Positions 6,238 through 28,692 of a stretch of 28,861 nucleotides of DNA are shown here, piece after piece. How positions within the stretch are numbered: the stretch's first letter is position 1; each line of letters starts with the position of its first letter. Both the position numbers and the translations under genes were made by a program. The notes beneath the pieces were generated by a model that was given only the letters and a program-made list of their open reading frames with translations, was not told the DNA's origin and ran no database searches. The DNA is from a virus (lineage: Duplodnaviria > Heunggongvirae > Uroviricota > Caudoviricetes), in IMG/VR virus record IMGVR_UViG_2695420523_000005. The stretch is one strand, 5' to 3'.

Positions 6238-6258
6238 GGCGGGCTATCCTTGCCCGCC
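6238..6258 (-). promoter_or_regulatory. GC-rich stem-loop between J and the tail fiber with AAGGAUA loop
   Basis: Perfect 7-bp stem ggcgggc/gcccgcc, loop tatcctt; followed on the minus strand by the SD AAGGAG and the fiber ATG at 6216. Confidence 0.5.
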
Positions 6259-6260
6259 AT

Positions 6261-6279
6261 TAAGTAGATACTTACCTAT
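6261..6279. promoter_or_regulatory. Junction motif taagtagatacttacctat between J and the tail fiber
   Basis: Contains the palindrome taagta ga tactta and the TACTTACCTAT core shared with 985..997. Confidence 0.35.
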
Positions 6280-6309
6280 TTTTACCGATATAAAATTTTT
6301 TTTCCACCA

Positions 6310-9300
6310 TCACAGACGGCCAATTCTTACTCGTAAGACGTTGTTATCGTCATAAACGTCAATCCGCTGACCATTTATAACCAATCGCCCATTGCCGCCG
6401 CTATTACCGTTGATCTCAAGCGTTCCATTTTTGCCGAACCGCCATCCAGATCTACCGCTAACAAAATTGGTAGATTGCAGATCGCCTACTTTTGCATTGG
6501 TGATTGTGCCATCCTTGATATACGCTCCATTCATATAGGCGATACTGTTTTCGATAACAAATGGCGTTGTGATCTTCCCGTTAACAGAGTTGACCAAACC
6601 AAACCTGTCCGCCTGAACCAAAAACTGAGATAGCCCAGTGGTGTCAATACCAAGCGCAATACCGGCAACATACTTCTGCCCTCCGCTCGTTGAAGTCTCC
6701 ATTTTCAACGTCCACGCGGTTGACACTTTTTTGTTGGTATCAGCAATAGCTGTTGCCTGCTGTTGAATTGTCGCGGTATTTCCATTCACCTCTGCTTTCA
6801 GAGTATCGATTCGCCCACTCAGAGCATTATCTGCCTGCGTTCTCGCTTTCGTTTCAGTTGTGACCGCCGCGGAAATGTTGGCTGCCGTTTGAGACTCTAA
6901 GTTTGTGATTTGAGTCGCCAATGCAGCATCTTGCTCTGTACGCGTTTTCGTTTCGGTTGCTACAGCCGCTTTAATATCCTCTTTGTATTGAGAGGTCAGC
7001 TTGGTGATCTGAGACGACAACGCCGAGTCAGCATCAGTTCGAGCCTGCGTTTCAACTGCAACGGCCGCACTAATATCTTTCGCTGTCTGTGCTTTTAAAC
7101 TTGAAACCTCTTTTGTTAAAGCGGTATCACCATCTGCACGAGCCGTTGTTTCTCTGGCAAGAGACGCCTTGAGATCATTAGCTTTTGCTGTAAGAGACGT
7201 AATCTGGGTAGACAATGCACTATCGGCATCAGTCCTTGCTTTTGTCTCTACAGCAACCGCTGCGGCAATATCAGTTCCGGTTTGTGCTCGCAGGCTGTTA
7301 ATTTCTCGTGAGAGCGCCTGGTCAGCACTTGCTCTGGCCTCCTGCTCCTGAGTGATGGCAGCGGATATATCACCGTCAACCTTTGACTGAAGCTGGTTTA
7401 TTTGTTTGGCTAACGCAGAGTCCCCGCTTGCTCGGGCCTCCTGCTCACTGCGTATTGCAGCAGAAATATCATCATCAACCTTTGCCTGAAGTTGGGTGAT
7501 CTGGCTTGCCAGAGCCGAATCTTCCGTTGCTCGGGCTTCTTGCTCTTCCTTAATAGCTGCGACGATATCGTTGCTTACTTTCGACTCAAGCTGAGTGATT
7601 TGTGTCGTCAGAGCTTCATCGGCAGATGTACGAGCCTCCTGCTCTGTACTAATCGCCGCGCTGATATCTCCTTCAAACTTAGATTGCAGCTGAGTGACAC
7701 GCTTTGCCAACGCTTCATCGCCATCGGCACGAGCGGTGGACTCTTCCAGAATACTGGCCTTAATGTCTTCGCCAATTTCTACGCGAATTTCCTCAACCTT
7801 CGTGGCCATTGCAGACATATCATCAGCAAAGGTTTTCTGTGTTGTTGCGATCTTCGCGTTATTGACCATCTGCTTGTGCTGGTCTTCATCTTGACGAAGA
7901 GCCAGGTCAATATTTGTTTTGGCCAAAGCCTCAATGTTCGTAGTCAGTTCTGCACTGGCACGATCGACCTCTGCAACCGTCTTTTTCATTTCTTCAACGG
8001 CAGCGGAGCTTTCCTCTACCGTTGACTGTAACACTTCCAGTTGTTTAGCGTTTGCAGCATCACCTTCAACACGAGCCTCGCTTTCCTTAGCAATAAGAGC
8101 CGCCGCTTCATCTCTTGCAGCCTTTATTGCCTCGACTGTATTAGCGAGAGCTTTATCGTGTTCAGATACGGTGTTTTCGATTTCAACAATTGCAGCATCA
8201 GTAGCATCAATTTTTTCAAACGCTTCATTGACCTTGTTAATCGTTGCCGAAACCTCACCTTTAAGCTCGGTTTGTGCGTTCTCCAAAGCATCGCTACGCT
8301 CGTTGAATTTTATTTCAAAACCCGCGAGGTTATCGCTGAACTGCTTATCTAATTCAGCTATATCTTCCTTAACGTCGTTTACCGCCCCCTCTAAAGATTC
8401 GACGCTCTGGTTGATATGCTCATTTAACTCGTCAACTGCTTCTTGAGAGACTTTGCTGTTGATGTCCTCAAGCAGAGCCTGACCAAGCTCGGAAGATGTA
8501 ATTTTGCCAGTCAGGAACGACAGTACATCGCGAGTTGTCGCCTCTGTACCCAAGTTTGAGTTCGGAGGACTTAACATACCTCGCTTGTTCGATGCTCGAA
8601 CCCAGTAATACCACGTTTCGCTATCCCCAAGACCAGCATGTGTAAAGGTGGTGCTTGCAGACTCTGCGATCAGTTTCGCCGTATCCAGATTGTTGGTCTG
8701 GGATGCGTAAACATTAATGTGATCAAGGTCTACCGAATCTGGATTAACCCAATTCAGTATCACATTACGATAGTCTCCAACGGCCGTTAATGACGTTGGG
8801 GCATCAGGCGGTGTCATTGTGCCCAACACCTGATAAACGGTACTGATAATCTCTGTTTTTTTACCGTTGAATGAAACCGCATACAGCTGGAAGTCGTAGC
8901 GTCCATTCTCCGCGACATTAACGATTTCGTATTGCTCTTCGGTTACACGCGCCGATTGCCAGTTCGATACATTGTTTTCATCAGAACGTCGCCAACTGAT
9001 CCAATACTCTGGAGATTTCCCTTCCCATGTTGCAGTCAGTTTTACTGACAGGTTGCCCGGGCTTGAGAGATAAGTCCCTTCAGTGATTTGCAGATTAGAT
9101 GGCTTGGAGTAAGTTGGGTCCAATACCGTCGTATTCTGCGGGATCAGCGTTGCACCATTGTCGATTGCCTCATATTTAGACGGATTGTTCTCAACAGCGG
9201 TGATGTCAAAGCTACCCGACGTTTCCCCCTGTGCGATGTTAACGATGCGAACGCGCATAGGTTCGAGATCTGATTCTGTAATTGTCCAGACACCGTTCAA

Positions 9301-11040
9301 AACAGGCGTTTCCGCTGACGACAGGGCTTTTGAAAACGTAACCTTTGTTATGTTTTCGCCAGTTTCAAGAACATCGCGTTCAACGATTTTGCCTTCCTGA
9401 TTCAATATCCGAATAAAGCTGCCGCTTTTAGCTAACGACACAGGCGCATCGAGAGTGATGCTGTTTTTGGTAAACTCCACAATTCGACCGGAGTTACGTT
9501 TACCTGCACGATATTTGTTCTGAATCAGAACGGTTTCACCAGGCATCAGAAATGAGGCGTCTAAGCCGGCAGTAAATGTAATTACATCCGACTCCATTCT
9601 GGCGGTATACAACAGCCACAAACCAACTCGGTGAGCCTGGCCTCGGCTTGTACATCCAAATGCTACGACTTCTGTTTTACGCTCACCATAACGGCGCATT
9701 GCGTCCTGATCTTCAACGTACTCGATATTTTGCTTATAACCGTCCTCCTTGTTGTTGTAGGTTACGAGCGCAACGGATGGGCGATCTTTACGCGCAGAAC
9801 CTTTATAGGTAAACAGCCCATCTTTGACGTTGGAGTTGGTAAACATCATTACCGGATCTGATGGGCTATCCTGCATGATGTTAACCATGCCACCAGCCCA
9901 AAACACCATGCCGCGGAATGCACCGGCAATATCCTGAATTAATCGGTATGCGTCTTGTCGACTGGTGATCTGCGTATTGATTGCAAAGCGTTTCTCTTTA
10001 CCCCCAAAGCCATCATCGACCTCTTCGTCACAATATCGACCAATCTGGTAGAGCTGGCCGAGGTCAATCATGGATTCCGACACAAATTGCCCAAGACCAT
10101 ACCGAGTATTGGTAAGCAAATCGTAGAGAATCCACGCAGGGTTTGAAGAAGACAACAGCTTAAAAGTACCGTCCCATACGCCGACATAAGTATTGGTGTA
10201 TTCGTTGTAGTTTGACGGTACTCGGATTTTGATACCGCGCACCAAATACGAACGGGAAGGCATTGTGCTACCAAACTGCTCTGAATTGACCTTCAAGCCA
10301 ACAAGAGCAGAGTTAGGGTAGTTCATTGGCGTGTCGACAATCTCACCGATGGAATCAACCCATGTGTCGTTGTAGAGGTACTGGCTACTATTATCATCTG
10401 TAAGACGAATCACCCTAACCTTGTATGCACGACCAGGCTTAGGCAGTTTCAGCTCATAGCTACGGTAATACACGCCGGTTTTCTTTGCCGTTAGCGTGAT
10501 ATCAACGCTTTTCTCACCTTCTGCCACTACATCAGAAAATGTTGCGTCTGCGTTGGCGATCTGGAATTTGTACTTCACCGTAGTGCCATTTGTATCGCCA
10601 GAGCTTTTATCAACGCTACGTAAAGAGGGGAATTTCATGATGACACGAACGCGATCAGCTTCATCGTTATCGATTGAAACCGTAACGTCGTGTGTTTTTT
10701 TAAGCTGAATATTTACGGACTTAGGCGTTTCAACAAAATCAAAACCAGCCATTGGCGTCTGGTCTTGTGAGCCGTCACGAAAATCCCATGTAATACCGCT
10801 GAAGTTGGAAGAGCCATCTTCATTCAAGATCGGTAAATCGTCGATGAAGATCGACTTTGCGCCATTTACCAGGCCACCGATAACCCCCTCGCCAAGAAGG
10901 TCGAGGATGGCTGCCATAGCACGAGAATTGACAGTATCATCAGCTTCAACCGGGGTACGGCTGGAGCTTTTACTTTTCTTGCCACCAGCACCGGCAATAA
11001 GAAGCGGTAATTTTTTCTTCTTGAACTGTTCCATGTCCAA
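6310..11040 (-). CDS. J: Tail tip attachment / host specificity protein J homolog with ~450-aa tandem-repeat insert and short non-lambda C-terminus
   Basis: 1576-aa ORF. Recalled lambda J blocks are conserved (NSALVGLKVNSEQFGS, AFGCTSRGQAHRVGLWL, GQKYVAGIALG...SQFLVQADR). The track start at 11040 is TTG; first ATG is at 11034; AAGGA lies just upstream. Confidence 0.92.
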   Translation of the reverse strand: MDMEQFKKKKLPLLIAGAGGKKSKSSSRTPVEADDTVNSRAMAAILDLLGEGVIGGLVNGAKSIFIDDLPILNEDGSSNFSGITWDFRDGSQDQTPMAGFDFVETPKSVNIQLKKTHDVTVSIDNDEADRVRVIMKFPSLRSVDKSSGDTNGTTVKYKFQIANADATFSDVVAEGEKSVDITLTAKKTGVYYRSYELKLPKPGRAYKVRVIRLTDDNSSQYLYNDTWVDSIGEIVDTPMNYPNSALVGLKVNSEQFGSTMPSRSYLVRGIKIRVPSNYNEYTNTYVGVWDGTFKLLSSSNPAWILYDLLTNTRYGLGQFVSESMIDLGQLYQIGRYCDEEVDDGFGGKEKRFAINTQITSRQDAYRLIQDIAGAFRGMVFWAGGMVNIMQDSPSDPVMMFTNSNVKDGLFTYKGSARKDRPSVALVTYNNKEDGYKQNIEYVEDQDAMRRYGERKTEVVAFGCTSRGQAHRVGLWLLYTARMESDVITFTAGLDASFLMPGETVLIQNKYRAGKRNSGRIVEFTKNSITLDAPVSLAKSGSFIRILNQEGKIVERDVLETGENITKVTFSKALSSAETPVLNGVWTITESDLEPMRVRIVNIAQGETSGSFDITAVENNPSKYEAIDNGATLIPQNTTVLDPTYSKPSNLQITEGTYLSSPGNLSVKLTATWEGKSPEYWISWRRSDENNVSNWQSARVTEEQYEIVNVAENGRYDFQLYAVSFNGKKTEIISTVYQVLGTMTPPDAPTSLTAVGDYRNVILNWVNPDSVDLDHINVYASQTNNLDTAKLIAESASTTFTHAGLGDSETWYYWVRASNKRGMLSPPNSNLGTEATTRDVLSFLTGKITSSELGQALLEDINSKVSQEAVDELNEHINQSVESLEGAVNDVKEDIAELDKQFSDNLAGFEIKFNERSDALENAQTELKGEVSATINKVNEAFEKIDATDAAIVEIENTVSEHDKALANTVEAIKAARDEAAALIAKESEARVEGDAANAKQLEVLQSTVEESSAAVEEMKKTVAEVDRASAELTTNIEALAKTNIDLALRQDEDQHKQMVNNAKIATTQKTFADDMSAMATKVEEIRVEIGEDIKASILEESTARADGDEALAKRVTQLQSKFEGDISAAISTEQEARTSADEALTTQITQLESKVSNDIVAAIKEEQEARATEDSALASQITQLQAKVDDDISAAIRSEQEARASGDSALAKQINQLQSKVDGDISAAITQEQEARASADQALSREINSLRAQTGTDIAAAVAVETKARTDADSALSTQITSLTAKANDLKASLARETTARADGDTALTKEVSSLKAQTAKDISAAVAVETQARTDADSALSSQITKLTSQYKEDIKAAVATETKTRTEQDAALATQITNLESQTAANISAAVTTETKARTQADNALSGRIDTLKAEVNGNTATIQQQATAIADTNKKVSTAWTLKMETSTSGGQKYVAGIALGIDTTGLSQFLVQADRFGLVNSVNGKITTPFVIENSIAYMNGAYIKDGTITNAKVGDLQSTNFVSGRSGWRFGKNGTLEINGNSGGNGRLVINGQRIDVYDDNNVLRVRIGRL
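6790..7760 (-). repeat. About ten tandem 99-bp (33-aa) coding repeats inside the J-like gene
   Basis: Periodicity visible in DNA (gctcgggcctcctgctc-like blocks near 7340, 7440, 7540, 7640) and in protein (DISAAI..EQEARASADEAL..QITQLQSKV repeated). Boundaries approximate. Confidence 0.8.
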
Positions 11041-11051
11041 AAAATCCTTGA

Positions 11052-11642
11052 TTACATAAGCTGGTCGATGGTGATAGAAGAACTCACGACCTGTGAGCCA
11101 ACTAAAATTTCCTCGCCATAGATAAGCTGTACAGGGTTCCCCTGGTTTGTTGTGTTTTGAGGTCCATCAAAGTAATAAGAGTTCGAGTTATCCGCCTGCC
11201 TCACACTTTCGTTAGTGGCTTGCGGAGATATGATTTGCGCTATACCGCCCATCATCAGTGACAAACCGAGAGGCGCAAGAGCGGGCACCCATATCGAGGC
11301 AACCATTAATACTGCTCCAACAACCGTCTGAAACCATCCAAAAGCAGATCCACCGCTTCCTCGCGGAACAGGTGTAATGCGGATTTTTGCAATATTGTCA
11401 GACTGCCCCATCATCTGATATTCACTCTCGTCCACAGACCACTTGTGGCCCTGTTTATTGGTGATCTGGATGTGGTATCTGTCATAGGTTTTGATATTGC
11501 GCTTCATCCATGCTTTAAACCCAGGCTTGTTGGCCTCAATTAAATCCAGAGCCTGTTTTGTATTACGCACCTTTAGATGCCAGTGGCGGCCAAAATGTTT
11601 GGCCATAGGGCCGCCAAGCTGCACATGAACTAACTCAGACAC
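11052..11642 (-). CDS. I: Tail assembly protein I-like (C-terminal hydrophobic segment)
   Basis: 196-aa ORF, GTG start at 11642 with AGGGAG about 8 nt upstream; N-terminal region loosely aligns with recalled lambda gpI; position between K and J. Confidence 0.75.
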   Translation of the reverse strand: MSELVHVQLGGPMAKHFGRHWHLKVRNTKQALDLIEANKPGFKAWMKRNIKTYDRYHIQITNKQGHKWSVDESEYQMMGQSDNIAKIRITPVPRGSGGSAFGWFQTVVGAVLMVASIWVPALAPLGLSLMMGGIAQIISPQATNESVRQADNSNSYYFDGPQNTTNQGNPVQLIYGEEILVGSQVVSSSITIDQLM

Positions 11643-13118: not shown

Positions 13119-13140
13119 TGTTTCATCCTTGAAATAAGTA

Positions 13141-13163
13141 GGCGCTAACATCCTGTCAGCGCC
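13141..13163 (-). promoter_or_regulatory. Stem-loop between M and L with AGGAU loop
   Basis: ggcgctaac/gtcagcgcc with one mismatch, loop atcct on the plus strand; about 25 nt upstream of the preferred L start. Confidence 0.5.
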
Positions 13164-13170
13164 ACAATGA

Positions 13171-13194
13171 TAGTAAATTAGTACTTACTTATCC
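13171..13194. promoter_or_regulatory. Junction motif tagtaaattagtacttacttatcc between M and L
   Basis: Shares the TACTTAC core and AT-rich palindromic flanks; lies immediately upstream (minus sense) of the 13141..13163 stem-loop. Confidence 0.35.
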
Positions 13195-13200
13195 AGATGC

Positions 13201-13536: not shown

Positions 13537-13573
13537 CTCACATCCTTGTGAGACTGCCCCGACCGGGGCAGTC
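13537..13573 (-). promoter_or_regulatory. Two adjacent stem-loops between tape measure and M; the proximal one carries the SD (AGGA) of M in its loop
   Basis: gactgcccc/ggggcagtc (13552..13573, loop gacc) and ctcaca/tgtgag (13537..13552, loop tcct); the M start codon begins at the base of the proximal stem. Confidence 0.6.
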
Positions 13574-13578
13574 GATAG

Positions 13579-18168: not shown

Positions 18169-18822
18169 ATATTTGCATCAGTTGCTCTTTGGCGTCAGGG
18201 TCTGCCTTATCCTGGCTTGGATCGTAGACTTTATCTGTTACGACTGGTCTTCCAATCCTGAGTTGCAAACCCTCCATGAACGCCTTCACAGCCTCGCCAT
18301 CCGCCTGGGACGCACGAGCGACTTGTAAGTTGCGGACATCCTCTTCCGCACGCAGACGGTCTATATTGCGACTGAGCATCCAGAACATCGTGAGAGGAAC
18401 GTTCAGTAGCTCTAATGGCGACACGGCGTAGTGAGCAACTACACGACTGAAATAGAATCCGAGATCTATTGAGACGGTCCTTGTCCCGGATTCATCGCGG
18501 GAAATTACTTTGCCCCTTCGCCAGCCGCTTTTTCGTTTTCTTCATCAATCACTTCCATAGCGAAGGTGAAGATCTGCTGGAGTTGCGGAACAGTCAGTTT
18601 TTCAAGAACTTCATCAGGCACTGAAGGGATAACCTTACGAACCAGATCTGCATAAGCTGTCACTTGCTCAACAGGAGACATGTTCATGAGATCTTTTCCT
18701 TCCATCTGCTTGATGGAAACGAACAGACCTACCGTCATTTCAACGATGGGATATTCCTGACCGCCAAATTTGATGCTTTTCTTCGGAGGCAGAATGGAAT
18801 CGAGATCGAGTAATTTGGTCAT
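18155..18822 (-). CDS. Tail assembly chaperone G-T fusion produced by programmed -1 ribosomal frameshift
   Basis: The downstream ORF (track 18155..18424) is in the -1 frame relative to G and that frame is open from 18541, giving a 36-nt overlap window (18508..18541) containing an AAAAAG run at 18528..18533. The slip site is not the canonical lambda GGGAAAG. Confidence 0.6.
18505..18822 (-). CDS. G: Tail assembly chaperone G
   Basis: 105-aa acidic ORF immediately upstream of the tape measure; ATG 18822 with AAGGA upstream; stop TAA at 18507..18505. Confidence 0.8.
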   Translation of the reverse strand: MTKLLDLDSILPPKKSIKFGGQEYPIVEMTVGLFVSIKQMEGKDLMNMSPVEQVTAYADLVRKVIPSVPDEVLEKLTVPQLQQIFTFAMEVIDEENEKAAGEGAK

Positions 18823-18833
18823 TGGTTAAAATC

Positions 18834-18864
18834 CTTTTAAAAGAGAGGCTCATCCTGAGCCTCT
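18834..18864 (-). terminator. Terminator/attenuator-like stem-loop downstream of the major tail gene
   Basis: 9-bp stem agaggctca/tgagcctct (18844..18864) with 3-nt loop; followed on the minus-strand RNA by CUUUUAAAAGGAU, then the ATG of G at 18822. Confidence 0.55.
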
Positions 18865-18877
18865 GCTTAATTACTGA

Positions 18878-19624
18878 TTAATCTGCGGAGTTAATCGTTA
18901 CTGACTTAGTAGCCTTCTTAGAACCGCTATTGCTGGTGAAGGAGATGTTTGCTGTACCCTGCGCCACACCGCGCACAAGACCCGTTTGATCTACCGTGGC
19001 CTTTTCCTGGTCTTCGGATTCCCAAACACCGGTTTTGTCTGCGGCATCAGCTGGAGTGATTTCGGCTGTCAGTTGCACAGTTTCTCCAGCTTTTACGGTT
19101 GGAGATTCCGGTGAGATCGACACAGTTTTTACCGGTTTAGGACCGCTCATTTTGCCCAGAACGCCTTCATCATCCGGGTATGCGCTGAACTGAACAGAGA
19201 ACACACGAACATCATCAGACTGGTAAGTCATAGTGAAGTTGCCCGCGGTTGCCGCTTTCGGGATGGTCAACACATAGTCGGTGGTGTCCTGCGGAGTCAG
19301 AACCAGCTCCTTCGCCACATCAATCAGGTTAACGCCCTGTGCAGATGTGATCGTGACAGAGTTGTCATCTTCGCTCAGAGTAGAACCAGGCATCAGGTCA
19401 ACCATGTTTTGGAGTACAGACTCAGCCAGAGGCGCGGTGATGGTAATGTTGCGCCCCTGAACTAATTCGGAAATTACGGTCTGCCCCAACTGATCGACGG
19501 TGACTTTCAGTGTTTCAGTGGCTACTTCAACCTGAACACCACCTTTGGTGTAACCCAAATCCACACCACCAAACGACACCTTACAGGCACCAAGTTTGAT
19601 GTTTTTTACATGGGTATTAGACAT
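18878..19624 (-). CDS. Major tail (tube) protein with C-terminal Ig-like (Big_2) domain
   Basis: Position immediately upstream of G; C-terminal ~80 aa (VSISPESPTVKAGETVQLTAEITPADAADKTGVWESED...) is an Ig-like repeat like those of the 22284..23204 protein. Track start 19660; I prefer ATG 19624 (MSNTHVKNIK...) with AAGGAG upstream. Confidence 0.8.
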   Translation of the reverse strand: MSNTHVKNIKLGACKVSFGGVDLGYTKGGVQVEVATETLKVTVDQLGQTVISELVQGRNITITAPLAESVLQNMVDLMPGSTLSEDDNSVTITSAQGVNLIDVAKELVLTPQDTTDYVLTIPKAATAGNFTMTYQSDDVRVFSVQFSAYPDDEGVLGKMSGPKPVKTVSISPESPTVKAGETVQLTAEITPADAADKTGVWESEDQEKATVDQTGLVRGVAQGTANISFTSNSGSKKATKSVTINSAD

Positions 19625-19672
19625 TGATGGAAAACTCCTTTTTCCGTTAATTCTACGCATTCATTGCGCTAA

Positions 19673-19692
19673 TAGTAAGTATATACTTACTA
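19673..19692. promoter_or_regulatory. Perfect 20-bp AT-rich palindrome tagtaagtatatacttacta upstream of the major tail gene (recurrent TACTTAC junction motif)
   Basis: The sequence equals its own reverse complement; lies between the upstream stop (19699) and the major tail start. Confidence 0.4.
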
Positions 19693-19698
19693 ATTGAG

Positions 19699-20055
19699 TT
19701 AATTCAATAAATAGCCAGCAAATTCAACAGGAATGCCTGCTTCTATTAATGCCCCATCATTTTTGGGATAAATGATTGGCATCGCCATCGGTCGAACAAG
19801 TCGAAAATAAACACCACCAGATTCCGTTTCCTCTACTGGAAACATCTCAATGATTTTATTGGCTTTCTCAACCGTCGTAGTAATTGACGAACCACGCACA
19901 ATTATTGTGAATGATTCGTGGTAAAAGCCCTGTAGCTCATGATCGATGCTGATACCGGTATTTGGGTTAATAAGCAGGACGCCAGATTTCACATTGGCAG
20001 GCAAGTAGTGACAGAAAATGTCAGTCCCGACCGTGCCAATCTTTGCCTTCTGCAT
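19699..20055 (-). CDS. Tail terminator-like protein (by position, gpU-equivalent)
   Basis: Track ORF 19699..20205 starts at TTG and overlaps the upstream gene by ~120 nt; ATG at 20055 (MQKAKIG...) removes the overlap. Function by synteny only. Confidence 0.45.
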   Translation of the reverse strand: MQKAKIGTVGTDIFCHYLPANVKSGVLLINPNTGISIDHELQGFYHESFTIIVRGSSITTTVEKANKIIEMFPVEETESGGVYFRLVRPMAMPIIYPKNDGALIEAGIPVEFAGYLLN

Positions 20056-20083
20056 CAAACTTGCAAACGCTTCAATAAACACA

Positions 20084-20557: not shown

Positions 20558-20892
20558 ATATTCGCCCCTACTTCAAGATGCCCAGGTCTTCCTCGTAGCC
20601 CCCAGCGGCGATGAACACTGGACACCTTTAATTTTTGACCTTCAAGGATCAGTACATCATCAAGTTGTACAGCCGCTTCCAAAGGGACAACTAACACAGC
20701 ATCAAACAGCTCCAGACTCGCCTTACCACGACTACCAGAGCTATCAGCACGAACTGACGATTTCTCATTACTCTGTTCGAACTTAACCACGCCGACATTC
20801 GTCTTCCTGACGAATTGTAATTGCGCCTCACCGTAAACGTTCTTTGCGCCAAAGCGGTAGATCGCAATTTCTGTTTGCCATGAAATATTCAT
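20548..20892 (-). CDS. Head-tail joining protein candidate (by position)
   Basis: Track ORF starts at 20988; internal ATG at 20892 (MNISWQTEIAIY...) has GGGAGA about 5 nt upstream and avoids overlap with the preceding gene. Confidence 0.45.
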   Translation of the reverse strand: MNISWQTEIAIYRFGAKNVYGEAQLQFVRKTNVGVVKFEQSNEKSSVRADSSGSRGKASLELFDAVLVVPLEAAVQLDDVLILEGQKLKVSSVHRRWGLRGRPGHLEVGANIWV

Positions 20893-20971
20893 GCTCTCTC
20901 CCTGTTGTTGTCGGTCGCTCTCATTACTGGCCAAAAACCCTTTAGACCAAAAGTAAATAATGCGACTGGCG

Positions 20972-21805: not shown

Positions 21806-22239
21806 TACTCACCGCCTTGTGCTTTCAGGATGCCTTCAATCATCTCGACAATTCCTTTCGCTTTAACACCAACCTGATTACCAATAACTCGTAGACCGGC
21901 AATACCTTCATTGTCTGCAATTGACTCCAACTCTTCTCGTGTGAAAGTCTGGAGCTGTTTGATCGGTTCATCTGGCGTCCCTCGTTTCATTGGCACAATG
22001 TCAGGCGCTACTGGCTCTGTAATCAGGTCTGCGGCCAATTCACCACGATCACTGTATGCGGCAGATGGGGAAACATTTTTTCCCTCTACTGTTGACGCTC
22101 GCATTGATGCACAAATTCTCTGCTGATCGATAAAAGGCAACTCTGCGACGGACACCCCATTCTCGAACTGAACGCCGCACAACATTCCCGAATAACCGGA
22201 AAATTGCGGTTCTAATAAAACAATTTTTGCTGGTTTCAT
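21805..22239 (-). CDS. Hypothetical head completion / adaptor candidate (144 aa)
   Basis: ATG at 22239, preceded by a GC-rich stem-loop with GAAA loop (22258..22275). Confidence 0.5.
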   Translation of the reverse strand: MKPAKIVLLEPQFSGYSGMLCGVQFENGVSVAELPFIDQQRICASMRASTVEGKNVSPSAAYSDRGELAADLITEPVAPDIVPMKRGTPDEPIKQLQTFTREELESIADNEGIAGLRVIGNQVGVKAKGIVEMIEGILKAQGGE

Positions 22240-22257
22240 AACGCTTTCTCTCTACAT

Positions 22258-22275
22258 GGGCGGCGAAAGCCGCCC
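22258..22275 (-). promoter_or_regulatory. GC-rich stem-loop (GAAA loop) between the Ig-like protein gene and the next gene
   Basis: gggcggc gaaa gccgccc, perfect 7-bp stem; no U-tract follows on the minus strand. Confidence 0.45.
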
Positions 22276-22283
22276 AATATCGG

Positions 22284-23204
22284 TTATTCCTGTGCGGCAG
22301 TAACTTCTACAGTCGCTGTCGCTTTGTGGCTACCATCTTGGGTAGTAACCTCGATTGTGGCAGTGCCAGCCGCAACACCAGTTACAACACCGGTTTCGCT
22401 GTCCACCGTTGCAAACTCGGTATTTTTGGATTCCCAAGTAACGGTTTTATTTGTTGCTCCTGCCGGCTCGACATTTGCGGTCAGCTGAACAGTTTTGTTT
22501 GCCTCAACGGTTGTGCTATTTGGGTCGATTTCGACACCAGTAACAGCCACAACAGGCGCAGTTACTTCCACCGTTGCAGTTGCCTTTTTGCTGCCATCTT
22601 GGGAAACGATCTCAATCGTCGCAGTGCCAACTTCTACACCAGTAACGTTCCCGCTCTGGTCTACCGTTGCCTTGTCTTCATTTTTGGAAGACCAGGTAAC
22701 TGCCTTATTCGTCGCATTTGACGGCTGAACATTCGCTTTCAGACTGACTGATTTCCCTTTCTCAACAGAAGTTGAGTCTGGCGTTACCGTTACGGATTGA
22801 ACGGCTACCGGATTTACGGTGACTTCCACTGACGCGGAAAGCTGGGTTTCCTGATCAGTTGCGGTAATTTTCACTTTGCCTGGTGCTACGCCAGTTACTA
22901 ATCCAGTGCCGTTGACGGTTGCAATTTGATCATTGGCTGACTTCCAGGTGAATGAACTGGCACTCTTACCCATAGTAATACCTGCACTAAGTTGAACAGT
23001 TTTCCCAACCAAAACTGACGGTGAAGCCGGGGTTATGTTTACGGATTGGGAGAAGGGAACCGCCTGCAAACAAGCAGATAGCTGACTTTGCTGTCGCTCG
23101 GTTAAAGGTTCATCGGAGATTGAATTGGTAAATCCGGCACGGCACATATGCCCCGTAAAATCCGAAAATGCCTCTTCCGTAATCTTCATCTTTTGTTCTG
23201 GCAT
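22284..23204 (-). CDS. Protein with three tandem Ig-like (Big_2) domains; capsid decoration protein candidate
   Basis: Three ~90-aa repeats of the pattern SV.VTP.S.SV..GKTVQL.A.V.P..ATNK.VTW.S.N...ATVD..G.VTGV..GTA.I; ATG 23204 with GGAG upstream; immediately downstream of the major capsid gene. Confidence 0.7.
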   Translation of the reverse strand: MPEQKMKITEEAFSDFTGHMCRAGFTNSISDEPLTERQQSQLSACLQAVPFSQSVNITPASPSVLVGKTVQLSAGITMGKSASSFTWKSANDQIATVNGTGLVTGVAPGKVKITATDQETQLSASVEVTVNPVAVQSVTVTPDSTSVEKGKSVSLKANVQPSNATNKAVTWSSKNEDKATVDQSGNVTGVEVGTATIEIVSQDGSKKATATVEVTAPVVAVTGVEIDPNSTTVEANKTVQLTANVEPAGATNKTVTWESKNTEFATVDSETGVVTGVAAGTATIEVTTQDGSHKATATVEVTAAQE

Positions 23205-23214
23205 TTCTCGCTCC

Positions 23215-23245
23215 TACAAAAAGGGTGGGCGTATAGCCCACCCTT
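23215..23245 (-). terminator. Intrinsic terminator-like stem-loop downstream of the major capsid gene
   Basis: Perfect 10-bp stem aagggtgggc/gcccaccctt with loop gtata (23221..23245); on the minus-strand RNA it is followed by UUUUUG, then GGAG and the next ATG at 23204. Confidence 0.7.
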
Positions 23246-23250
23246 TAACA

Positions 23251-23268
23251 TAGATAATTACTTATCTA
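23251..23268. promoter_or_regulatory. Junction motif tagataattacttatcta (imperfect palindrome), just after the major capsid stop
   Basis: 17 of 18 positions identical to the copy at 26674..26691; arms tagataa / ttatcta are reverse complements. Confidence 0.4.
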
Positions 23269-23277
23269 CTGCACTGA

Positions 23278-24153
23278 TTAAATTTTTACATTGGTCAGTG
23301 CAGCGATAGCCTTATCGTGCTTATTCGCCAGAGAGCAGTACCACTTCACACGGGTACGTACTGCGTCTTTGTTCTGTACAGTACCAATGTTTTCAACAAC
23401 GATACCTGCGTTGTCGCCGCCATACAGACCAGTAACGCCGTTCTCTTCTGACAGATGCAGGCAGTAGATGCTTGCTTTACCAGCATCGGTCGGGATGAAG
23501 TCGTTGATGATGAACGGAACGCCGTTATGACACAGCATCGGACGACCAAAGTTCTCCATCATGATTTCAGACGGACCTACGTTTACTGTACGCAGCAGCG
23601 CACGGTAAGCACGAAGGTGCTCTGAACGCATCATGATGCAGTCAGCACCAAGATCTTTCACCGCATCGACCAGTTCGTCGAACATAGAGAAAGTCATAGA
23701 TGCACCGGCGATATCGATCTTCTGATCTGCGTGCATCAGGCGTGGAATGCCGTCAAACGCTTTGTTGTTGGTGCTGGAGTCACCCAAAATCAGATTGCGA
23801 CGGAACGCACGAGCCAGACCTTTAACTTTCTGACGAACCTGAATAGCCAACTGGTTATTGGTGTCGGCCATAGTGGTTGCCAGGAATTTATCAACGTCTA
23901 CGTCACCAGCCAGAATACGCAGTTTCGCAACGCATTCTTCGAAGGTTGCTGCACCTTCAGTGATGGTGTCGTTAACGTCGATGAAGGTAGCTTCACTCAG
24001 CGTTTTTTCACGATTGTACAGATATGCCTTTGAATTAATTTTCATAAAAGGCAGGATGGCAAACAGGTCATCGCGATCAATGATAGTTTCGATCACACCC
24101 TGTTCGAGTTCGTTGTTAGACAGCTTTTCAGCTTCTTCACGCAGTAATGGCAT
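23278..24153 (-). CDS. Major capsid protein
   Basis: 291-aa ORF between scaffold and decoration candidate, followed by a strong intrinsic terminator; assignment by position and size, family not identified. Confidence 0.7.
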   Translation of the reverse strand: MPLLREEAEKLSNNELEQGVIETIIDRDDLFAILPFMKINSKAYLYNREKTLSEATFIDVNDTITEGAATFEECVAKLRILAGDVDVDKFLATTMADTNNQLAIQVRQKVKGLARAFRRNLILGDSSTNNKAFDGIPRLMHADQKIDIAGASMTFSMFDELVDAVKDLGADCIMMRSEHLRAYRALLRTVNVGPSEIMMENFGRPMLCHNGVPFIINDFIPTDAGKASIYCLHLSEENGVTGLYGGDNAGIVVENIGTVQNKDAVRTRVKWYCSLANKHDKAIAALTNVKI

Positions 24154-24178
24154 CTATCAATTCCCTTTGATTTAGATG

Positions 24179-25066
24179 TTACTTAAGTCCAATTTTCCCC
24201 AGACCGGAGGCCAACTTATCCATAGTCGACTTGTTCTTCGGTTGGGATATTGTGTAGGTCGATTTGGAATGTGAGCCTACACCCTGCTTGGCTTCGCTAC
24301 GCATCAATGCGTCAGCTTCCGGATCTGCCCGCACAATGCGTTCAATCGCGGATTCAAACGGCAACGGCTTACCTTCACCGTCAACCAGAACAGCTCGTTC
24401 TTTATGACCTGTCGGTTTGTCATAACCCACTACGCTACCGTCTTCACCCACTTCAAAATGAGAACCGTAGATCACGCGGGCTTTTGCCGGGGTCATCAGA
24501 ACTTTGTCACGTAGGAAGAGAGAGTTACTGAAGGAAGCGCCCACGGTCATCTCGACTAATTGAGATTTCAGTGATGCGTTTTCACTTTCCAGTGCTGTAT
24601 AACGTTCGTCACGCTGTGCCAGTTCTGCCTGGTGTGCTTCGATCATCTGTTTTTTAACAGCATCGAACTCACCACGACGCTCCAGTTCAGCTTGCTCCGC
24701 CTCACGACGTGCATTTTCTGCGGCCTGTTCAGCTTCTAAAAGCTGGCGAGCACGCGCCGGGTCGATATCACCGTACTGAGCAAGCTGATCGGCCAATGTG
24801 CGCTCTTTCTCTTTGCGCTTCATGTTCTCCTTCAGCAGTTCAGCACCAGCTTTCTTGGTTTTACGAAGTTCGGCCAGTAACTCTTCCTGAGTCATGCCAG
24901 CGTATTCGTCATCGCCCTTCGGCTGCTCTTTTTGTTCACCCTGTTTGTCAGGATCTTGTGTGCTCTGCTCATTATCAGCAGCTACACCGCCAGCGCCTCC
25001 ACGCTCATGCGCTTCAGCGACATCCATCAGACCACGACGGGCCAAAAGCATTTGCCACAGATTCAT
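24179..25066 (-). CDS. Capsid scaffolding protein
   Basis: Highly charged, Glu/Ala/Arg-rich helical protein (e.g. ARQLLEAEQAAENARREAEQAELERR) between portal and capsid genes; ATG 25066 with AGGA upstream. Confidence 0.65.
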   Translation of the reverse strand: MNLWQMLLARRGLMDVAEAHERGGAGGVAADNEQSTQDPDKQGEQKEQPKGDDEYAGMTQEELLAELRKTKKAGAELLKENMKRKEKERTLADQLAQYGDIDPARARQLLEAEQAAENARREAEQAELERRGEFDAVKKQMIEAHQAELAQRDERYTALESENASLKSQLVEMTVGASFSNSLFLRDKVLMTPAKARVIYGSHFEVGEDGSVVGYDKPTGHKERAVLVDGEGKPLPFESAIERIVRADPEADALMRSEAKQGVGSHSKSTYTISQPKNKSTMDKLASGLGKIGLK

Positions 25067-25087
25067 AAAAATTCCTTTTGTTACTTA

Positions 25088-26662
25088 TCACTCGTTCTCT
25101 TGAGTAGATGAGTCCCCATTCCCTCGGGGTTGATCTTGCCCGCTTTCTTGGGCTGCACCACGATCATAAGTAAGTACTGACTTATTTTCAAGGGTATTTA
25201 GATCATTTTTTGGAGGAAAATTCAAGAGATCTTTATCAAATTCCTTTTTCATCGCCTCAGTAATGTTCGGGAAAATCTTCTCAATAAGCATTTCCATCTG
25301 GTGACGACGTACAGAGTCCGGTGCCTGAAGTAATGACAGTTTCTCGGCAACAGAAAATTCATCAGTAAGGCCACGAATATCGAAACTTTCTGGATACGCA
25401 ATTAAAGAGTGGTCTTCGTCCAGATCTACCCCCATCCATTTCGCAACCAGTAGCATGATTTGGCGTTCAGCCCTTTCCAGACGCTCTGCTTTTGTGACAA
25501 GCAAGCTATTTACACGCTGGAAGTCATACATTTTTGCGGCACCAGATGAATTATCGATTCCCTGTGCGTTGTCCTGCTTCGTTCGCTCACCAGCTACACC
25601 AACTGAATGGTAGATTTCGTTAATCACCGTCTTAATCGTAGTGATGATCATCTGAGCTTGTTTCGGGTCTGGTGACAGATAAAACGGCTGGTTTCCACCT
25701 TCAGAATCGTAGGTGAAGACTCGCTTTGTGCCCATTTCAAGCACTTTAGTGTGGTTTTCATCACCAGGTAAAAGCGACTGTACCGGTATAGCCAACTGGC
25801 TAAATGTCTGATCCTGAATAATGGCATCAAGGTTTGACAGATAGTTTGCAACCGCACGATCAAGATAAGCGATATCATCGATCAACGATGGGCTGAAATA
25901 CGGTGATTCACTTTCTCCAATACAATCAACAGGAAACACAGGAACTACGCCGAGATTATGCTCACCGCTATCCTCTAAAATAACTTTTGCCTGACGGCGA
26001 CCTGCTCCACCAGCGCCCTTCTTCACTTCCTCACGGAACAGATACCACTCGTTTTGTGTCCACAGACGATAACGTTGGTATTCCTGACCTGTAGAAGTAA
26101 AAGGATCTGCGTCATCACGAGCGACTTCCACAATTAACGCCCACAACATATTCCCGTCGTCGTCCCACGCCACATCCAGCATTTGCTGAGGTGAAATCCA
26201 GTAGGCGTAGGCGCGAGCATCTTTCTTTTTCTCGTCAGCTACTGACTCAACATCACCACTCATCGTGCTATCGACAACAACCCATATGCGACCGTAAATA
26301 GACGACTGCAAATCAATAGCGGCCATAAATGAGTCAATAGAGGCATTCTGGCGAGTCGCACGTTTCCAGAAATTGCGGATCTGCTCTGGTGCCTCTTCGA
26401 TATTTCTATGAATGTCTTCTTTAAAGAGATATTTGTTGATGAGGTTTACCACCTCACGAGTGTGGTTGAAGCGATAAGCACGTTCAACTCGCTCCTTAAA
26501 CTCCTGATCTCCCTCTTTAAAGTAACGAAAGATATTGTCTGTAAACCAACCACGCCCGCCAGCGTAAGTGCTGGCGAGGAAGTCCCAATGTTCTTTTTTC
26601 TTTTCGTATTCCGGGTGGCGTCGCGCCACCAGATCCTTAATTTGTTTGTCGTTCAATTCCAT
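25088..26662 (-). CDS. Portal protein
   Basis: 524-aa ORF immediately downstream of the large terminase; size and position typical of a portal; no motif-level confirmation. Confidence 0.8.
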   Translation of the reverse strand: MELNDKQIKDLVARRHPEYEKKKEHWDFLASTYAGGRGWFTDNIFRYFKEGDQEFKERVERAYRFNHTREVVNLINKYLFKEDIHRNIEEAPEQIRNFWKRATRQNASIDSFMAAIDLQSSIYGRIWVVVDSTMSGDVESVADEKKKDARAYAYWISPQQMLDVAWDDDGNMLWALIVEVARDDADPFTSTGQEYQRYRLWTQNEWYLFREEVKKGAGGAGRRQAKVILEDSGEHNLGVVPVFPVDCIGESESPYFSPSLIDDIAYLDRAVANYLSNLDAIIQDQTFSQLAIPVQSLLPGDENHTKVLEMGTKRVFTYDSEGGNQPFYLSPDPKQAQMIITTIKTVINEIYHSVGVAGERTKQDNAQGIDNSSGAAKMYDFQRVNSLLVTKAERLERAERQIMLLVAKWMGVDLDEDHSLIAYPESFDIRGLTDEFSVAEKLSLLQAPDSVRRHQMEMLIEKIFPNITEAMKKEFDKDLLNFPPKNDLNTLENKSVLTYDRGAAQESGQDQPRGNGDSSTQENE

Positions 26663-26673
26663 TTGAATAACCT

Positions 26674-26694
26674 TAGATAATTACTTACCTATCG
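26674..26694. promoter_or_regulatory. Junction motif tagataattacttacctatcg overlapping the large terminase stop, upstream of the portal start
   Basis: Near-identical to 23251..23268; same TACTTAC core as 985..997, 6261..6279 and 13171..13194. Confidence 0.4.
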
Positions 26695-28656: not shown

Positions 28657-28692
28657 CTGGGGTGTTTAATTAGGTCTGGCATGTCTTACGAA

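Follow-up and report, generated by a model that had tools for sequence, protein, structure and literature searches.

Repressors of the cI/Xre type, such as those of P22 and 434, bind as helix-turn-helix dimers to operators that overlap core promoter elements. Each operator is a 14-18 bp palindrome whose outer half-sites are conserved and whose centre, about 4 bp, is weakly specified; these repressors also regulate their own genes. A different arrangement is represented by the KorB operators of RK2 and the dispersed centromere sites of N15, where a palindrome spread over the plasmid in multiple copies near promoters is bound by ParB-family proteins and mediates global silencing. In P1, a single repressor, C1, acts on many operators spread over about 100 kb of a plasmid-prophage; these 17-bp asymmetric sites overlap the sigma-70 promoters of distinct operons, with examples at ssb and lpa annotated in the P1 record, and the late genes are controlled indirectly, via Lpa. 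The P1 late promoters, which consist of an Lpa box ('-22') and a -10 hexamer (AAGTGACTA-N4-TAAATT, AAGTGATTT-N4-TATCCT, AAGTTACTT-N4-TACCAT and ATGTGACTT-N4-TACCCT), carry AAGT/ACTT inverted half-sites upstream of TAnnnT and are found in multiple copies before morphogenesis and lysis units. Finally, the Cluster A mycobacteriophages (L5 gp71) possess more than 20 operators and stoperators genome-wide, at promoters and in short intergenic spaces; the L5 sites are 13 bp long and asymmetric, are functional in one orientation and are bound by a monomer with two DNA-binding domains (PMC9283540).

The stretch of DNA analysed here (28,861 nucleotides; hereafter, the window) comes from an E. coli SSU5-like phage-plasmid and corresponds to its late module; it has 98.8% identity to phage Cyrano, and all genes in it are on the minus strand. 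The element, which is of the SSU5/pHCM2/pMT1 type, carries about 20-25 copies of an 18-bp AT-rich palindrome, denoted M1, across a genome of about 105 kb. On the coding strand, M1 reads TA(A/G)(G/A)TAA-N4-TTA(C/T)(C/T)TA (7-N4-7); we found no earlier description of it in the literature. An earlier note on this DNA had pointed to palindromes with a TACTTAC core (GTAAGTA/TAAGTA on the coding, minus strand) that recur at gene junctions, and this pattern is borne out. TACTTAC occurs 8 times in the window versus 1.7 expected, a count attained in 0 of 100 shuffles, and TAAGTA is found 9 times in 1,028 nt of intergenic versus 3 times in 27,718 nt of coding sequence (odds ratio 81, Fisher p = 2e-11). 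A 22-nt weight matrix trained on the other enterobacterial relatives yields 8 matches in the window at a threshold of at least 12 bits, which represent 7 sites (6 intergenic, 1 within the portal gene), compared with 0.075 matches in window shuffles and 0.008 in shuffles of intergenic composition. The enrichment extends to the complete genomes, with 25 of the 26 matrix matches in Cyrano and 26 of the 28 in SSU5 located in intergenic DNA, where the non-coding share is 10-13%. The top-ranked intergenic 8-mer, ATAAGTAA, occurs 13 times in intergenic and never in coding sequence. The N4 spacing is rigid: it holds at 4/4, 8/8, 3/3, 9/9, 11/11 and 7/8 sites in relatives whose half-site is not self-periodic. 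The flanks of M1 are likewise symmetric, the orientation bias is weak (32 vs 16), and no asymmetric flank was found that is fixed family-wide or lies at a fixed distance from M1.

Going through the window in the direction of transcription, the palindrome upstream of terS (28713..28727, AATAAGT-A-ACTTATT; listed in the earlier note as 28711-28730) is a weaker, M1-like variant with a different spacing (9.3 bits) at the centre of a 55-nt palindrome (28694-28748; -27.7 kcal/mol, z -9.8). The terminase/portal junction carries TAGGTAAGTAATTATCTA (26674..26691, minus strand; matrix match 26672-26693; 21.2 bits), whose first 3 bases double as the large terminase stop codon and which ends 11 nt short of the portal start codon; all 10 relatives compared have a palindrome here, those of Acinetobacter and Aeromonas being variants. 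A strong site overlooked in the earlier list, TAAGTCAGTACTTACTTA (25167..25184, minus strand; matrix match 25165-25186; 24.0 bits), is located in the 3'-terminal part of the portal coding sequence, 77 nt ahead of the stop codon and upstream of the scaffold and capsid genes, and fills the spacer of the promoter-like TTGAAA-17-TATGAT (25191..25163; 10 of 12 positions match). It is retained in 8 of 8 enterobacterial relatives despite a change of the encoded residues from NKSVLTY to SKLALTY, so that the palindrome appears to be under selection within a gene while the protein sequence shifts. At the portal/scaffold junction itself, there is only a half-site remnant without a partner arm, TGATAAGTAAC (25080..25090, minus strand; below 6 bits; 25078-25090 in the earlier list), kept in 6 enterobacterial relatives and missing in the two most divergent Klebsiella elements.

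The site after the major capsid gene, TAGATAAGTAATTATCTA (23251..23268, minus strand; matrix match 23249-23270; 19.8 bits), is, as the earlier note had it, identical to the copy at 26674 in 17 of 18 positions. It is followed by a terminator-like hairpin (23218-23246; -20.5 kcal/mol, z -5.4) that begins 4 nt downstream by the fold, or 7 nt if the G+C core of the stem alone is counted, and this order, with the terminator 4-12 nt after the palindrome, recurs in enterobacterial relatives as well as in distant ones. Upstream of the major tail protein gene, the perfect 20-bp palindrome TAGTAAGTATATACTTACTA is exactly where it had been described (19673..19692; matrix match 19670-19695; 21.7 bits); it overlaps the -10 of the promoter-like TTGAAT-18-TATACT (19707..19678), and its core, GTAAGTATATACTTAC, is retained in 6 enterobacterial relatives. 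After the same gene, upstream of the terminator-like hairpin 18839-18864, lies a decayed site, TCAGTAATTAAG (18867..18883, minus strand; below 6 bits); the matching region in distant relatives contains full palindromes, each followed by a GC hairpin. The junction of tail genes M and L carries TAAGTAAGTACTAATTTA (13174..13191, minus strand; matrix match 13172-13193; 23.8 bits), which is kept in 6 relatives and lies within the spacer of the promoter-like TGGATA-17-TATCAT (13195..13167). Between the tail-tip J and tail-fibre genes, TAGGTAAGTATCTACTTA (6261..6278, minus strand; matrix match 6259-6280; 23.1 bits) is kept in Cyrano and SSU5 and precedes a GC hairpin (6238-6258). The last site, TAGGTAAGTACACACCTA (976..993, minus strand; matrix match 974-995; 18.6 bits), is at the junction of the cor-like and holin genes, where SSU5 has a perfect 28-bp palindrome. 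The exact TACTTAC is present in 5 of the 9 sites originally listed; those at 18867-18883 and 25078-25090 are only half-site remnants. The proposed order of stop codon, palindrome, GC hairpin, Shine-Dalgarno sequence and start codon is frequent but not obligatory: among the 9 listed junctions, 4 have a stable GC hairpin after the motif (6238-6258, 13141-13163, 18839-18864 and 23218-23246), and GC hairpins are also present at junctions without the motif (13553-13572, 22257-22276 and 2118-2150).

M1 is found at the same junctions in 10 relatives. When variants are included, equivalent junctions carry the element in about 35 relatives, whose hosts are gamma-, beta- and alphaproteobacteria. Most of a further 29 loci from these three host classes contain half-site variants (TAAGTCA, TAAATCA, TTAGTAA, TCAGTAA and others). 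These variants do not track the host phylogeny, which points to a factor encoded by the element, and no co-variation of the half-site variant with any candidate protein could be demonstrated. The A and C forms of half-site position 6 are mixed in Shinella, so that this difference is evidently tolerated.

The sites mark the boundaries of the lytic modules, namely packaging, portal, scaffold and capsid, neck, tail tube, tail tip, fibre and lysis, but also precede genes for replication, recombination and nucleotide metabolism, so that M1 is not late-specific. Sigma-70-like promoters called independently in a scan coincide with 3 of the 7 sites in the window, and 3 of the 10 promoter-like sites on its coding strand coincide with M1. 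In Cyrano, 10 of 21 sites overlap a promoter-like site, compared with 17% of random intergenic windows; M1 usually fills the spacer, and its centre lies between -13.5 and -22.5 at 7 sense-strand sites and at no antisense site. Family-wide, the preference for sense over antisense promoter context is borderline (30 vs 16, p = 0.054). Overall, a third to half of the sites are embedded in a sigma-70-type promoter, either occupying its spacer or lying over its -10 or start point, and about half of the sites have no recognisable sigma-70 promoter. The suggestion that these are late-promoter-like elements is therefore upheld with respect to the promoter overlap but not with respect to the symmetry of the palindrome and its presence ahead of genes that are not late. 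Several M1-linked promoters combine good -35 and -10 hexamers with a 17-bp spacer (e.g., the TTGAAA-17-TATGAT inside the portal gene) and accordingly would need repression rather than activation.

The 7-N4-7 palindrome, its rigid spacing and its conservation across the family support the earlier proposal of sites for a dimeric DNA-binding regulator. We estimate the probability at roughly one half that M1 copies are dispersed operators of a dimeric helix-turn-helix repressor that is encoded by the phage-plasmid and silences lytic promoters; the binding of a protein to M1, the sign of the regulation and the identity of the protein are what we infer here from comparative sequence data. The gene for this regulator would lie on the phage-plasmid itself, outside the window. 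While the element persists as a plasmid-prophage, the bound regulator would keep the dispersed lytic promoters shut, and it may be a roadblock where no promoter is recognisable; upon induction, loss of the regulator would release all lytic units together. The best candidate for this role is a CYRAN_45 homologue, the Xre-family protein whose gene neighbours that of the integrase. A single promoter-like site, TTTACA-16-TAATAT, precedes this gene, and M1 abuts and follows the -10, covering the start point, an arrangement kept in E. coli, Yersinia pMT1 and Klebsiella; in Shinella, a related palindrome is found upstream of the Xre-type gene. This gene is expressed in the lysogen (PMC9928086) and is family-wide; it occurs in 995 plasmid records, and its distribution over hosts matches that of the structural genes. 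Several observations count against the operator interpretation: the M1 copy at the promoter of the candidate regulator scores only 9.6 bits, about half of the sites are without a recognisable sigma-70 promoter, the family-wide preference for sense promoter context is borderline, the half-site variants show no co-variation with a candidate protein, and several sites lie 4-12 nt upstream of terminator-like hairpins, an arrangement that a repressor does not require.

The main rival, possible but clearly less probable than the operators, is that M1 is the box of a lytic-cycle activator and that each site is an activator-dependent promoter, as in P1. M1 shares the AAGT/ACTT half-sites with the P1 late promoters, and the variant ahead of terS has precisely AAGTAACTT as its core (in Yersinia and Enterobacter, AAGTGACTT), the 9-bp form AAGTnACTT of the '-22' box; at nearly all M1 sites, however, the AAGT-to-ACTT spacing is N8 rather than N1, and no asymmetric flanking element occurs at a fixed distance. 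The centre of M1 is at -19.5 or -22.5 from the predicted starts at 6 sites in Cyrano, and TAnnnT starts at M1 position 17 in 32% of 130 sites, but many M1-associated promoters already have good -35 hexamers. Several sites end just 7-14 nt before the start codon, which leaves no room for a start point and a Shine-Dalgarno sequence, several would fire straight into a terminator hairpin, and the site at the Xre gene is in a repressing position. The activator model is kept alive by a conserved 88-aa winged-helix gene located immediately upstream of terS, between the upstream operon and terS in 27 loci, that is, in the place of lpa in P1; its product would be the activator. This gene is outside the set of genes expressed in lysogeny (PMC9928086), and M1 marks lytic units and is missing from the promoter regions of the parA, MinD-like and FljA-like genes. 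A homologue of Lpa was not found (best phmmer E-value 0.024, no PF25716 match, probability of 0.05% in the profile comparison with Lpa).

The other explanations appear far weaker. The RNA processing signals raised in the earlier note would make M1 an AU-rich hairpin with a 7-bp stem and a 4-nt loop, acting in processing or stability or as the target of a translational repressor beside the Shine-Dalgarno sequence. The 7-N4-7 form is indeed also that of a tetraloop hairpin, some sites abut the Shine-Dalgarno sequence, those at 23251 and 26674 each form a 7-bp stem capped by a GUAA loop (z -3.0 and -2.2), and one arm pair at the capsid junction is A-T, G.T or G-C in different relatives. Nevertheless, folding is better than in shuffles at only 3 of the 9 listed sites (energies of 0 to -7 kcal/mol), arm mismatches across 130-180 sites show no excess of the G:U type over the A:C type (26 vs 21, p = 0.56; A:A and T:T are the commonest), full palindromes in divergent promoter regions would be read on both strands, and Rfam gives no match. 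FljA binds fliC mRNA, and an FljA-like protein of PF03614 is encoded in this group, but in the enterobacterial members only, whereas M1 is family-wide; a function in RNA is hence improbable. We similarly consider it unlikely that M1 is a loading or centromere-like site of a dispersed parS/KorB-type silencing or organising system for the two ParB-family proteins encoded in an operon upstream of terS. Their genes are kept there in all relatives examined, M1 resembles the parS and KorB operators, which are palindromic, comparably long, repeated in several copies and in many cases close to promoters, and one ParB-like residue (position 34) changes from K/R to D/E between half-site classes. This association is no stronger than that of the top columns of unrelated control proteins and thus provides no evidence of a link to M1; a contiguous 16-bp palindrome is more typical of ParB sites than 7-N4-7 with a variable centre; and the promoter region of parA contains a second palindrome, M2, that is better suited as the candidate centromere or operator of the partition system. 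The ParB-like genes are also outside the lysogen-expressed set (PMC9928086). Least probable of all is the absence of any regulatory role, with M1 a by-product of AT-rich intergenic DNA and multi-frame stops (TAA-G-TAA) or a module-exchange boundary like the PeSL/lambdoid sequences. At many sites, the upstream gene does end in a TAA triplet of the motif, and M1 sites flank the variable fibre region, but stop codons do not explain the symmetry, the fixed spacing or the conservation from entero- to alphaproteobacterial elements, and neither the 6 intergenic sites, against 0.008 matches in the composition-matched shuffles, nor the retention of the portal-gene site while amino acids change fits this explanation.

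If M1 sites are operators, they may switch the lytic genes on or off together. Such a system would resemble that of P1 C1 in the combination of one repressor with many operators over a plasmid-prophage, although the C1 sites are asymmetric, the C1 protein is unrelated, and M1 is present also throughout the structural operon, whereas the late genes of P1 are controlled indirectly via Lpa. Compared with P22 and 434, where 6 operators are clustered at two promoters, the M1 sites are dispersed and some lie inside the late operon. In copy number, in location and in being largely excluded from coding sequence, M1 resembles the L5 stoperators, which differ in being short, asymmetric and orientation-bound. 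The similarity extends to lytic relatives: D29, which lacks the repressor, keeps the sites of the L5 group (PMC5712189), and the SSU5 record, without the integrase and Xre module, retains the M1 sites.

The long open reading frames of the window all lie on the minus strand and make up a siphovirus late module with genes for the small and large terminase, portal, a scaffold-like DUF6651 protein, major capsid protein, neck proteins, major tail protein, tape measure, tail tip, fibre and lysis functions. The DNA is 98.8% identical to that of the Escherichia phage-plasmid Cyrano and ~82% identical to that of Salmonella phage SSU5, and similar DNA is found in 969 plasmid records from Klebsiella, Escherichia, Acinetobacter, Enterobacter, Yersinia (pMT1), Salmonella and others. 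SSU5-like phage-plasmids, a family that includes Yersinia pestis pMT1 and the pHCM2-type Salmonella plasmids, are widespread among clinical isolates of Enterobacteriaceae and Acinetobacter, with some 1,000 records in the plasmid collection that was searched. Some members are reported to carry resistance genes (PMC9600943). No description of the lysis-lysogeny circuitry of these elements was found in the searchable literature.

The occurrence of palindromes with a TACTTAC core at gene junctions, claimed in an earlier note on this DNA, is borne out by the counts. There are 8 copies of the core in the window versus 1.7 expected and, in the coding-strand reading (GTAAGTA/TAAGTA), TAAGTA occurs nine times in 1,028 nt of intergenic sequence and three times in 27,718 nt of coding sequence (p = 2e-11). 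The 20-bp palindrome at 19673-19692 is exact, as is the 17/18 identity reported between the copies at 23251 and 26674. The genome scan with a weight matrix that the note had proposed was run with a 22-nt matrix, trained on other enterobacterial relatives only and applied at a cut-off of at least 12 bits. It identifies the 18-bp AT-rich palindrome, hereafter M1, at seven places in the window (974-995, 6259-6280, 13172-13193, 19670-19695, 23249-23270, 25165-25186 and 26672-26693), versus 0.075 in shuffles of the window and 0.008 in shuffled intergenic sequence. Two of the originally listed sites, at 18867 and 25078, turn out to be half-site remnants; the one at 28711 is an M1-like variant but has a different spacing and lies inside a 55-nt palindrome, and the list omitted an M1 site located within the portal gene. 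The GC hairpin said to follow the motif is present and strong at four junctions, but GC hairpins also occur without the motif.

In the complete annotated genome of Cyrano, ATAAGTAA is the most enriched intergenic 8-mer (13 intergenic occurrences, none in coding sequence), and the matrix yields 26 hits that correspond to 21 distinct sites, with 25 of the hits being intergenic; SSU5, scanned over its first 82 kb, gives 28 hits at about 23 sites, and 26 of these hits are intergenic. The sites precede the structural and lysis modules but also replication, recombination and nucleotide-metabolism genes and thus are not specific for late genes. Anchoring to stop codons, as expected of a gene-end signal, was considered as well. 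The median distance from stop codon to site is 9 nt, yet this reading is rejected because in several long spacers M1 adjoins the start codon.

The aligned sites conform to the palindrome TA(A/G)(G/A)TAA-N4-TTA(C/T)(C/T)TA, with AT-rich, symmetric flanks, and the consensus duplex is GATAAGTAAGTACTTACTTATC. The two half-sites are located one helical turn apart (7-N4-7). The enterobacterial half-site includes a 4-nt periodic (TAAG)n, so that two registers are possible at some sites; in the non-periodic variants, the N4 is invariant, and this arm spacing is found in essentially every site of the relatives with AGTCA or AATCA half-sites. All seven arm pairs are intact in 54 of the 182 sites of the family. 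Comparison of orthologous junctions in ten relatives shows that the sequence has drifted but remained palindromic, at terminase/portal, capsid/next gene, neck/tail tube, M/L and J/fibre, before the holin gene and 5' of the small terminase gene (terS). All eight enterobacterial relatives have kept the M1 site inside the portal gene, including those in which the peptide that it encodes reads SKLALTY instead of NKSVLTY. A conserved TTT located 11-13 nt 5' of the sites is probably part of the shared C-terminal coding sequence of the orthologous genes.

A search with a portal-protein profile added 29 loci from Xenorhabdus, Morganella, Photobacterium, Halomonas, Chitinibacter, Paraburkholderia, Massilia, Magnetospirillum, Methylocystis, Phyllobacterium, Chelativorans and others, most of which have their own intergenic 7-N4-7 palindrome with the half-site TAAGTAA, TAAGTCA, TAAATCA, ATAGTCA, TTAGTAA or TCAGTAA. 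On the portal tree, these variants are intermingled without regard to host taxonomy, which speaks for an element-encoded and not a host-encoded factor. The host regulators TyrR, FNR, IHF, LexA and sigma-28 were rejected, given that their sites do not fit M1 and that the motif variant does not track host phylogeny.

The earlier suggestion that the palindromes are RNA processing signals is not supported. Folded as RNA, they are weak (0 to -7 kcal/mol), with three of the nine listed sites beating shuffled sequences and z-scores above -2 at the other six; the neighbouring GC hairpins fold strongly. Among the arm mismatches in the family, A:A and T:T dominate, G:U-type pairs (26) show no excess over the A:C type (21), and an Rfam search with M1 gave no match. 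In many members, full palindromes also occupy the short stretch that separates the divergently oriented helicase gene and ParB operon. Taken together, the weak folding, the lack of G:U excess, the sites in the divergent region and the empty Rfam search argue for an element of double-stranded DNA, and we conclude that M1 probably acts in this form, bound by a dimer. The palindromic layout with a fixed N4 likewise agrees with the dimeric regulator that the earlier note had envisaged. An intrinsic terminator is not a suitable interpretation of M1 either, the stems being AT-rich and lacking a U tract.

The GC hairpins at 23218-23246 and 18839-18864, by contrast with M1, do fit the definition of a terminator, with a GC-rich stem and a U tract. 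The palindrome lies 4-12 nt 5' of a terminator-like hairpin after the capsid gene and, in many relatives, after the tail-tube gene, a regularity that is not explained by a repressor model. The loops of three GC hairpins (6238-6258, 13141-13163 and 18839-18864) contain AAGGAUA or CAGGAUG, that is, a Shine-Dalgarno-like or GGA motif, and the loop of the hairpin at 13141-13163 contains the start codon of tail gene L; these motifs may serve in translational control or as CsrA-type sites.

Sigma-70-like promoter matches, which here are matches to the consensus and not mapped promoters, are two- to three-fold depleted in the window compared with shuffles (8 vs 19.9 and 5 vs 14.7). M1 coincides with a coding-strand match at three of its seven sites, which accounts for three of the ten such matches: in TTGAAA-17-TATGAT (25191..25163), M1 fills the spacer; in TGGATA-17-TATCAT (13195..13167), it lies within the spacer; and in TTGAAT-18-TATACT (19707..19678), it covers the -10 element. 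In Cyrano, 10 of the 21 M1 sites overlap promoter-like sequences, versus 17% of random intergenic windows, and in 7 of these 10 cases, the M1 centre is at -13.5 to -22.5 on the sense strand, with no antisense case. Such composites recur across the family, e.g., TTGATA-G-TAAATCAATATTGATT-TACTAT and TTGACA-...-TATATT, and the family-wide promoter context is sense in 30 cases versus antisense in 16 (p = 0.054). A recognisable promoter is missing at about half of the M1 sites, and some sites end just 7-14 nt 5' of a start codon. No asymmetric element is fixed across all sites, the palindrome and its immediate flanks being symmetric. A fixed -10 element 3' of the palindrome is not favoured, since TAnnnT starting at M1 position 17 (32% of sites) is about as common on the mirror side (28%). 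The late-promoter-like reading offered in the earlier note is partly supported, by the overlap with promoter-like matches. A T4-type late promoter, recognised by a phage sigma factor or RNA polymerase, was considered in view of the T4-like recombination genes and of the resemblance of gATAAgTA to TATAAATA, and was rejected because the element and its flanks are symmetric and no polymerase-sized gene of unassigned function is annotated.

The best candidate for the cognate regulator is an Xre-type protein of 128 aa (CYRAN_45 in Cyrano) encoded next to the integrase gene. The only promoter-like site 5' of this gene is TTTACA-16-TAATAT, and directly after its -10 hexamer there is an M1 site of 9.6 bits, TCGGTAAGCACTTACCAG, that covers the predicted start point. 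The same arrangement is kept in E. coli, Yersinia pMT1 and Klebsiella, and in Shinella, TAAGTAG-GCGT-TGACTTA is found 5' of the Xre-type homologue. Its homologues, present in 995 plasmid records, are distributed over hosts in the same way as the structural genes. In the lysogen of Cyrano, a phage that ciprofloxacin induces 39-fold, this gene is among the few that are expressed (PMC9928086). The site at its own promoter, the expression in the lysogen and the shared plasmid distribution make this gene a candidate for the regulator acting at M1. The SSU5 record (NC_018843) contains no homologue of the integrase-adjacent regulator, and its M1 sites are nonetheless kept; SSU5 may be a deletion derivative unable to maintain lysogeny. 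The second candidate is an 88-aa winged-helix protein (CYRAN_123 in Cyrano) with weak MarR-like similarity (E = 0.0016), the gene for which is immediately 5' of terS in 27 loci, the same position as that of lpa, the late-promoter activator gene, in P1. Co-variation with the half-site, assessed for the winged-helix protein, two ParB-like proteins and TerS, gave a signal no better than that of control proteins; in Shinella, A- and C-type half-sites are found side by side, so this half-site classification has little power. Cyrano additionally encodes, outside the window (L004, 18780-19301), a 173-aa 'transcriptional regulator' of the FljA family (PF03614, E = 1e-80) with weak Sm/Hfq-like similarity, which is confined to the enterobacterial members.

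We favour the interpretation of M1 as an operator at which a repressor would shut many dispersed sigma-70-type lytic promoters and elsewhere possibly block read-through. This reading is preferred because a number of the promoters at M1 seem so strong that repression would be required, because M1 occupies repressing positions (spacer, -10 or start point) and its placement relative to start codons is otherwise unconstrained, and because M1 also covers the predicted start point of the Xre-type gene expressed in lysogeny. The chief alternative is an activator box of the kind found in the late promoters of P1, which, in the sequences taken from the annotated P1 record, share AAGT/ACTT half-sites with M1. 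The P1 element, however, is a 9-bp AAGTnACTT at about -22, a form seen among the M1 sites only at 28713-28727; elsewhere, the spacing from TAAGT to ACTTA is N4 or N8. P1 late promoters have a -10 hexamer 4 bp 3' of the repeat and no -35 hexamer; at M1, TAnnnT has the frequencies given above, and several sites have good -35 hexamers. Lpa itself was not detected: the best E-value in the Cyrano proteome and genome (phmmer, tblastn) is 0.024, PF25716 (Lpa) has no match in the scanned candidate proteins, PHROGs gave no homologue, and the winged-helix family matches Lpa with a probability of 0.05% when their profiles are compared. The difference in spacing and the lack of an Lpa homologue led us to reject the P1 system as a model for M1.

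Dispersed repressor sites have precedents. L5-type mycobacteriophages have operators and stoperators distributed through the genome (PMC9283540). The stoperators of Cluster A phages resemble M1 in number and location, with more than 20 copies at promoters and in short intergenic spaces (Cyrano has 21 and the 82 kb of SSU5 about 23, of which only one or two are not intergenic), but they are asymmetric 13-bp sites in strict orientation, whereas M1 is an 18-bp palindrome, with the left half-site the better one in 32 cases and the right in 16 across the family. The Cluster A repressor is a monomer with a helix-turn-helix and a stoperator domain that stops elongating RNA polymerase; the candidate for M1 is the 128-aa Xre-type protein. 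The operators of the P1 repressor C1 are dispersed like M1 but are asymmetric, and the repressors of both L5-type phages and P1 are unrelated to the candidate here. With the operators of cI/Xre-type repressors, M1 shares the palindrome with half-sites one helical turn apart, the overlap with predicted core promoter elements and the site at the predicted promoter of the Xre-type gene itself; this architecture resembles that of P22/434-type operators.

In its broadest form, to which we assign a probability of only about 0.3, the repressor model holds that one small Xre-type protein silences the ~105-kb phage-plasmid via 20-25 identical palindromic operators. Each operator would lie in the spacer or at the start of a dispersed sigma-70 promoter or be placed as a roadblock, and the programme from replication to lysis would constitute one regulon without a separate late activator, kept from Enterobacteria (Y. 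pestis pMT1, S. Typhi pHCM2) to Alphaproteobacteria. At the capsid and tail-tube genes, which are highly expressed, the combined promoter and operator would be fused to the terminator of the preceding gene. Were a TAnnnT overlapping the end of the palindrome to serve as the -10, transcription would start inside the 5' arm of the terminator hairpin, and new transcripts would therefore escape the termination that stops upstream transcripts at the hairpin.

The literature searched, which concerned promoters, repressors and transcript maps of SSU5, pHCM2 and phage-plasmids, yielded no mention of M1. A conserved cis-element at nearly every lytic unit would provide a direct computational map of the regulon and the operon boundaries, along with a testable candidate for the master regulator; the half-site variant would offer a way to predict immunity groups, and M1 itself a handle for inducing or locking SSU5-like elements. 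If the repressor reading is true, the logic of many dispersed operators known from P1 and L5-type phages would extend to a third, unrelated group, here with a palindromic and not an asymmetric site.

Several other features of the window and its relatives deserve mention. The right end (28747-28861) is the end of an IS1 element that abuts the outer edge of a large palindrome 5' of terS and is located where relatives carry the small winged-helix gene. The insertion cuts terS off from the operon 5' of it, and late expression or the induction of this plasmid in particular could be altered as a result. The palindrome (28694-28748) is 55 nt long and near-perfect, with 17-bp arms CCTGCTTCTGTATATAT/ATATATACGGAAGCAGG (-27.7 kcal/mol, z -9.8), and encloses the M1-like variant. 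Cyrano has three copies: one 5' of terS, one at 31158, 5' of the replication operon, and one at 78087. All three lead into similar sequence, ACACCC..AGAA.ACAAGT. The records of both SSU5 and Cyrano begin inside this palindrome, whose role may be that of master operator, terminator, origin or packaging site.

Another palindrome, M2 (AGAAAACAA-N-TTGTTTT), is present in two intergenic copies 5' of terS (28617-28632 and 28643-28658). Cyrano contains about 17 such sites, mostly 22-76 nt 5' of the starts of small early-type genes and also in the parA promoter region, with none elsewhere in the late operon. M2 is probably recognised by another regulator than M1. The word CTACAGTGGATA/AGTGGATA occurs eight times in intergenic and never in coding sequence of Cyrano (L003, about 28500-30400, outside the window); these copies are probably iterons because at least two of them flank repA.

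The window shares with SSU5 three extra genes between the tail-fibre and holin genes (2188-6216 and 994-2097), including a cor-like gene, that are missing in Cyrano (compared region L002, 22511-26739); this variable block is bounded by the M1 sites at 6261 and 976. Finally, the 80-nt spacer at 18425-18504, between two small genes 5' of the tape measure gene, is near-invariant in the enterobacterial relatives and partly kept in Aeromonas; this is the expected place of the programmed frameshifting of tail chaperones.
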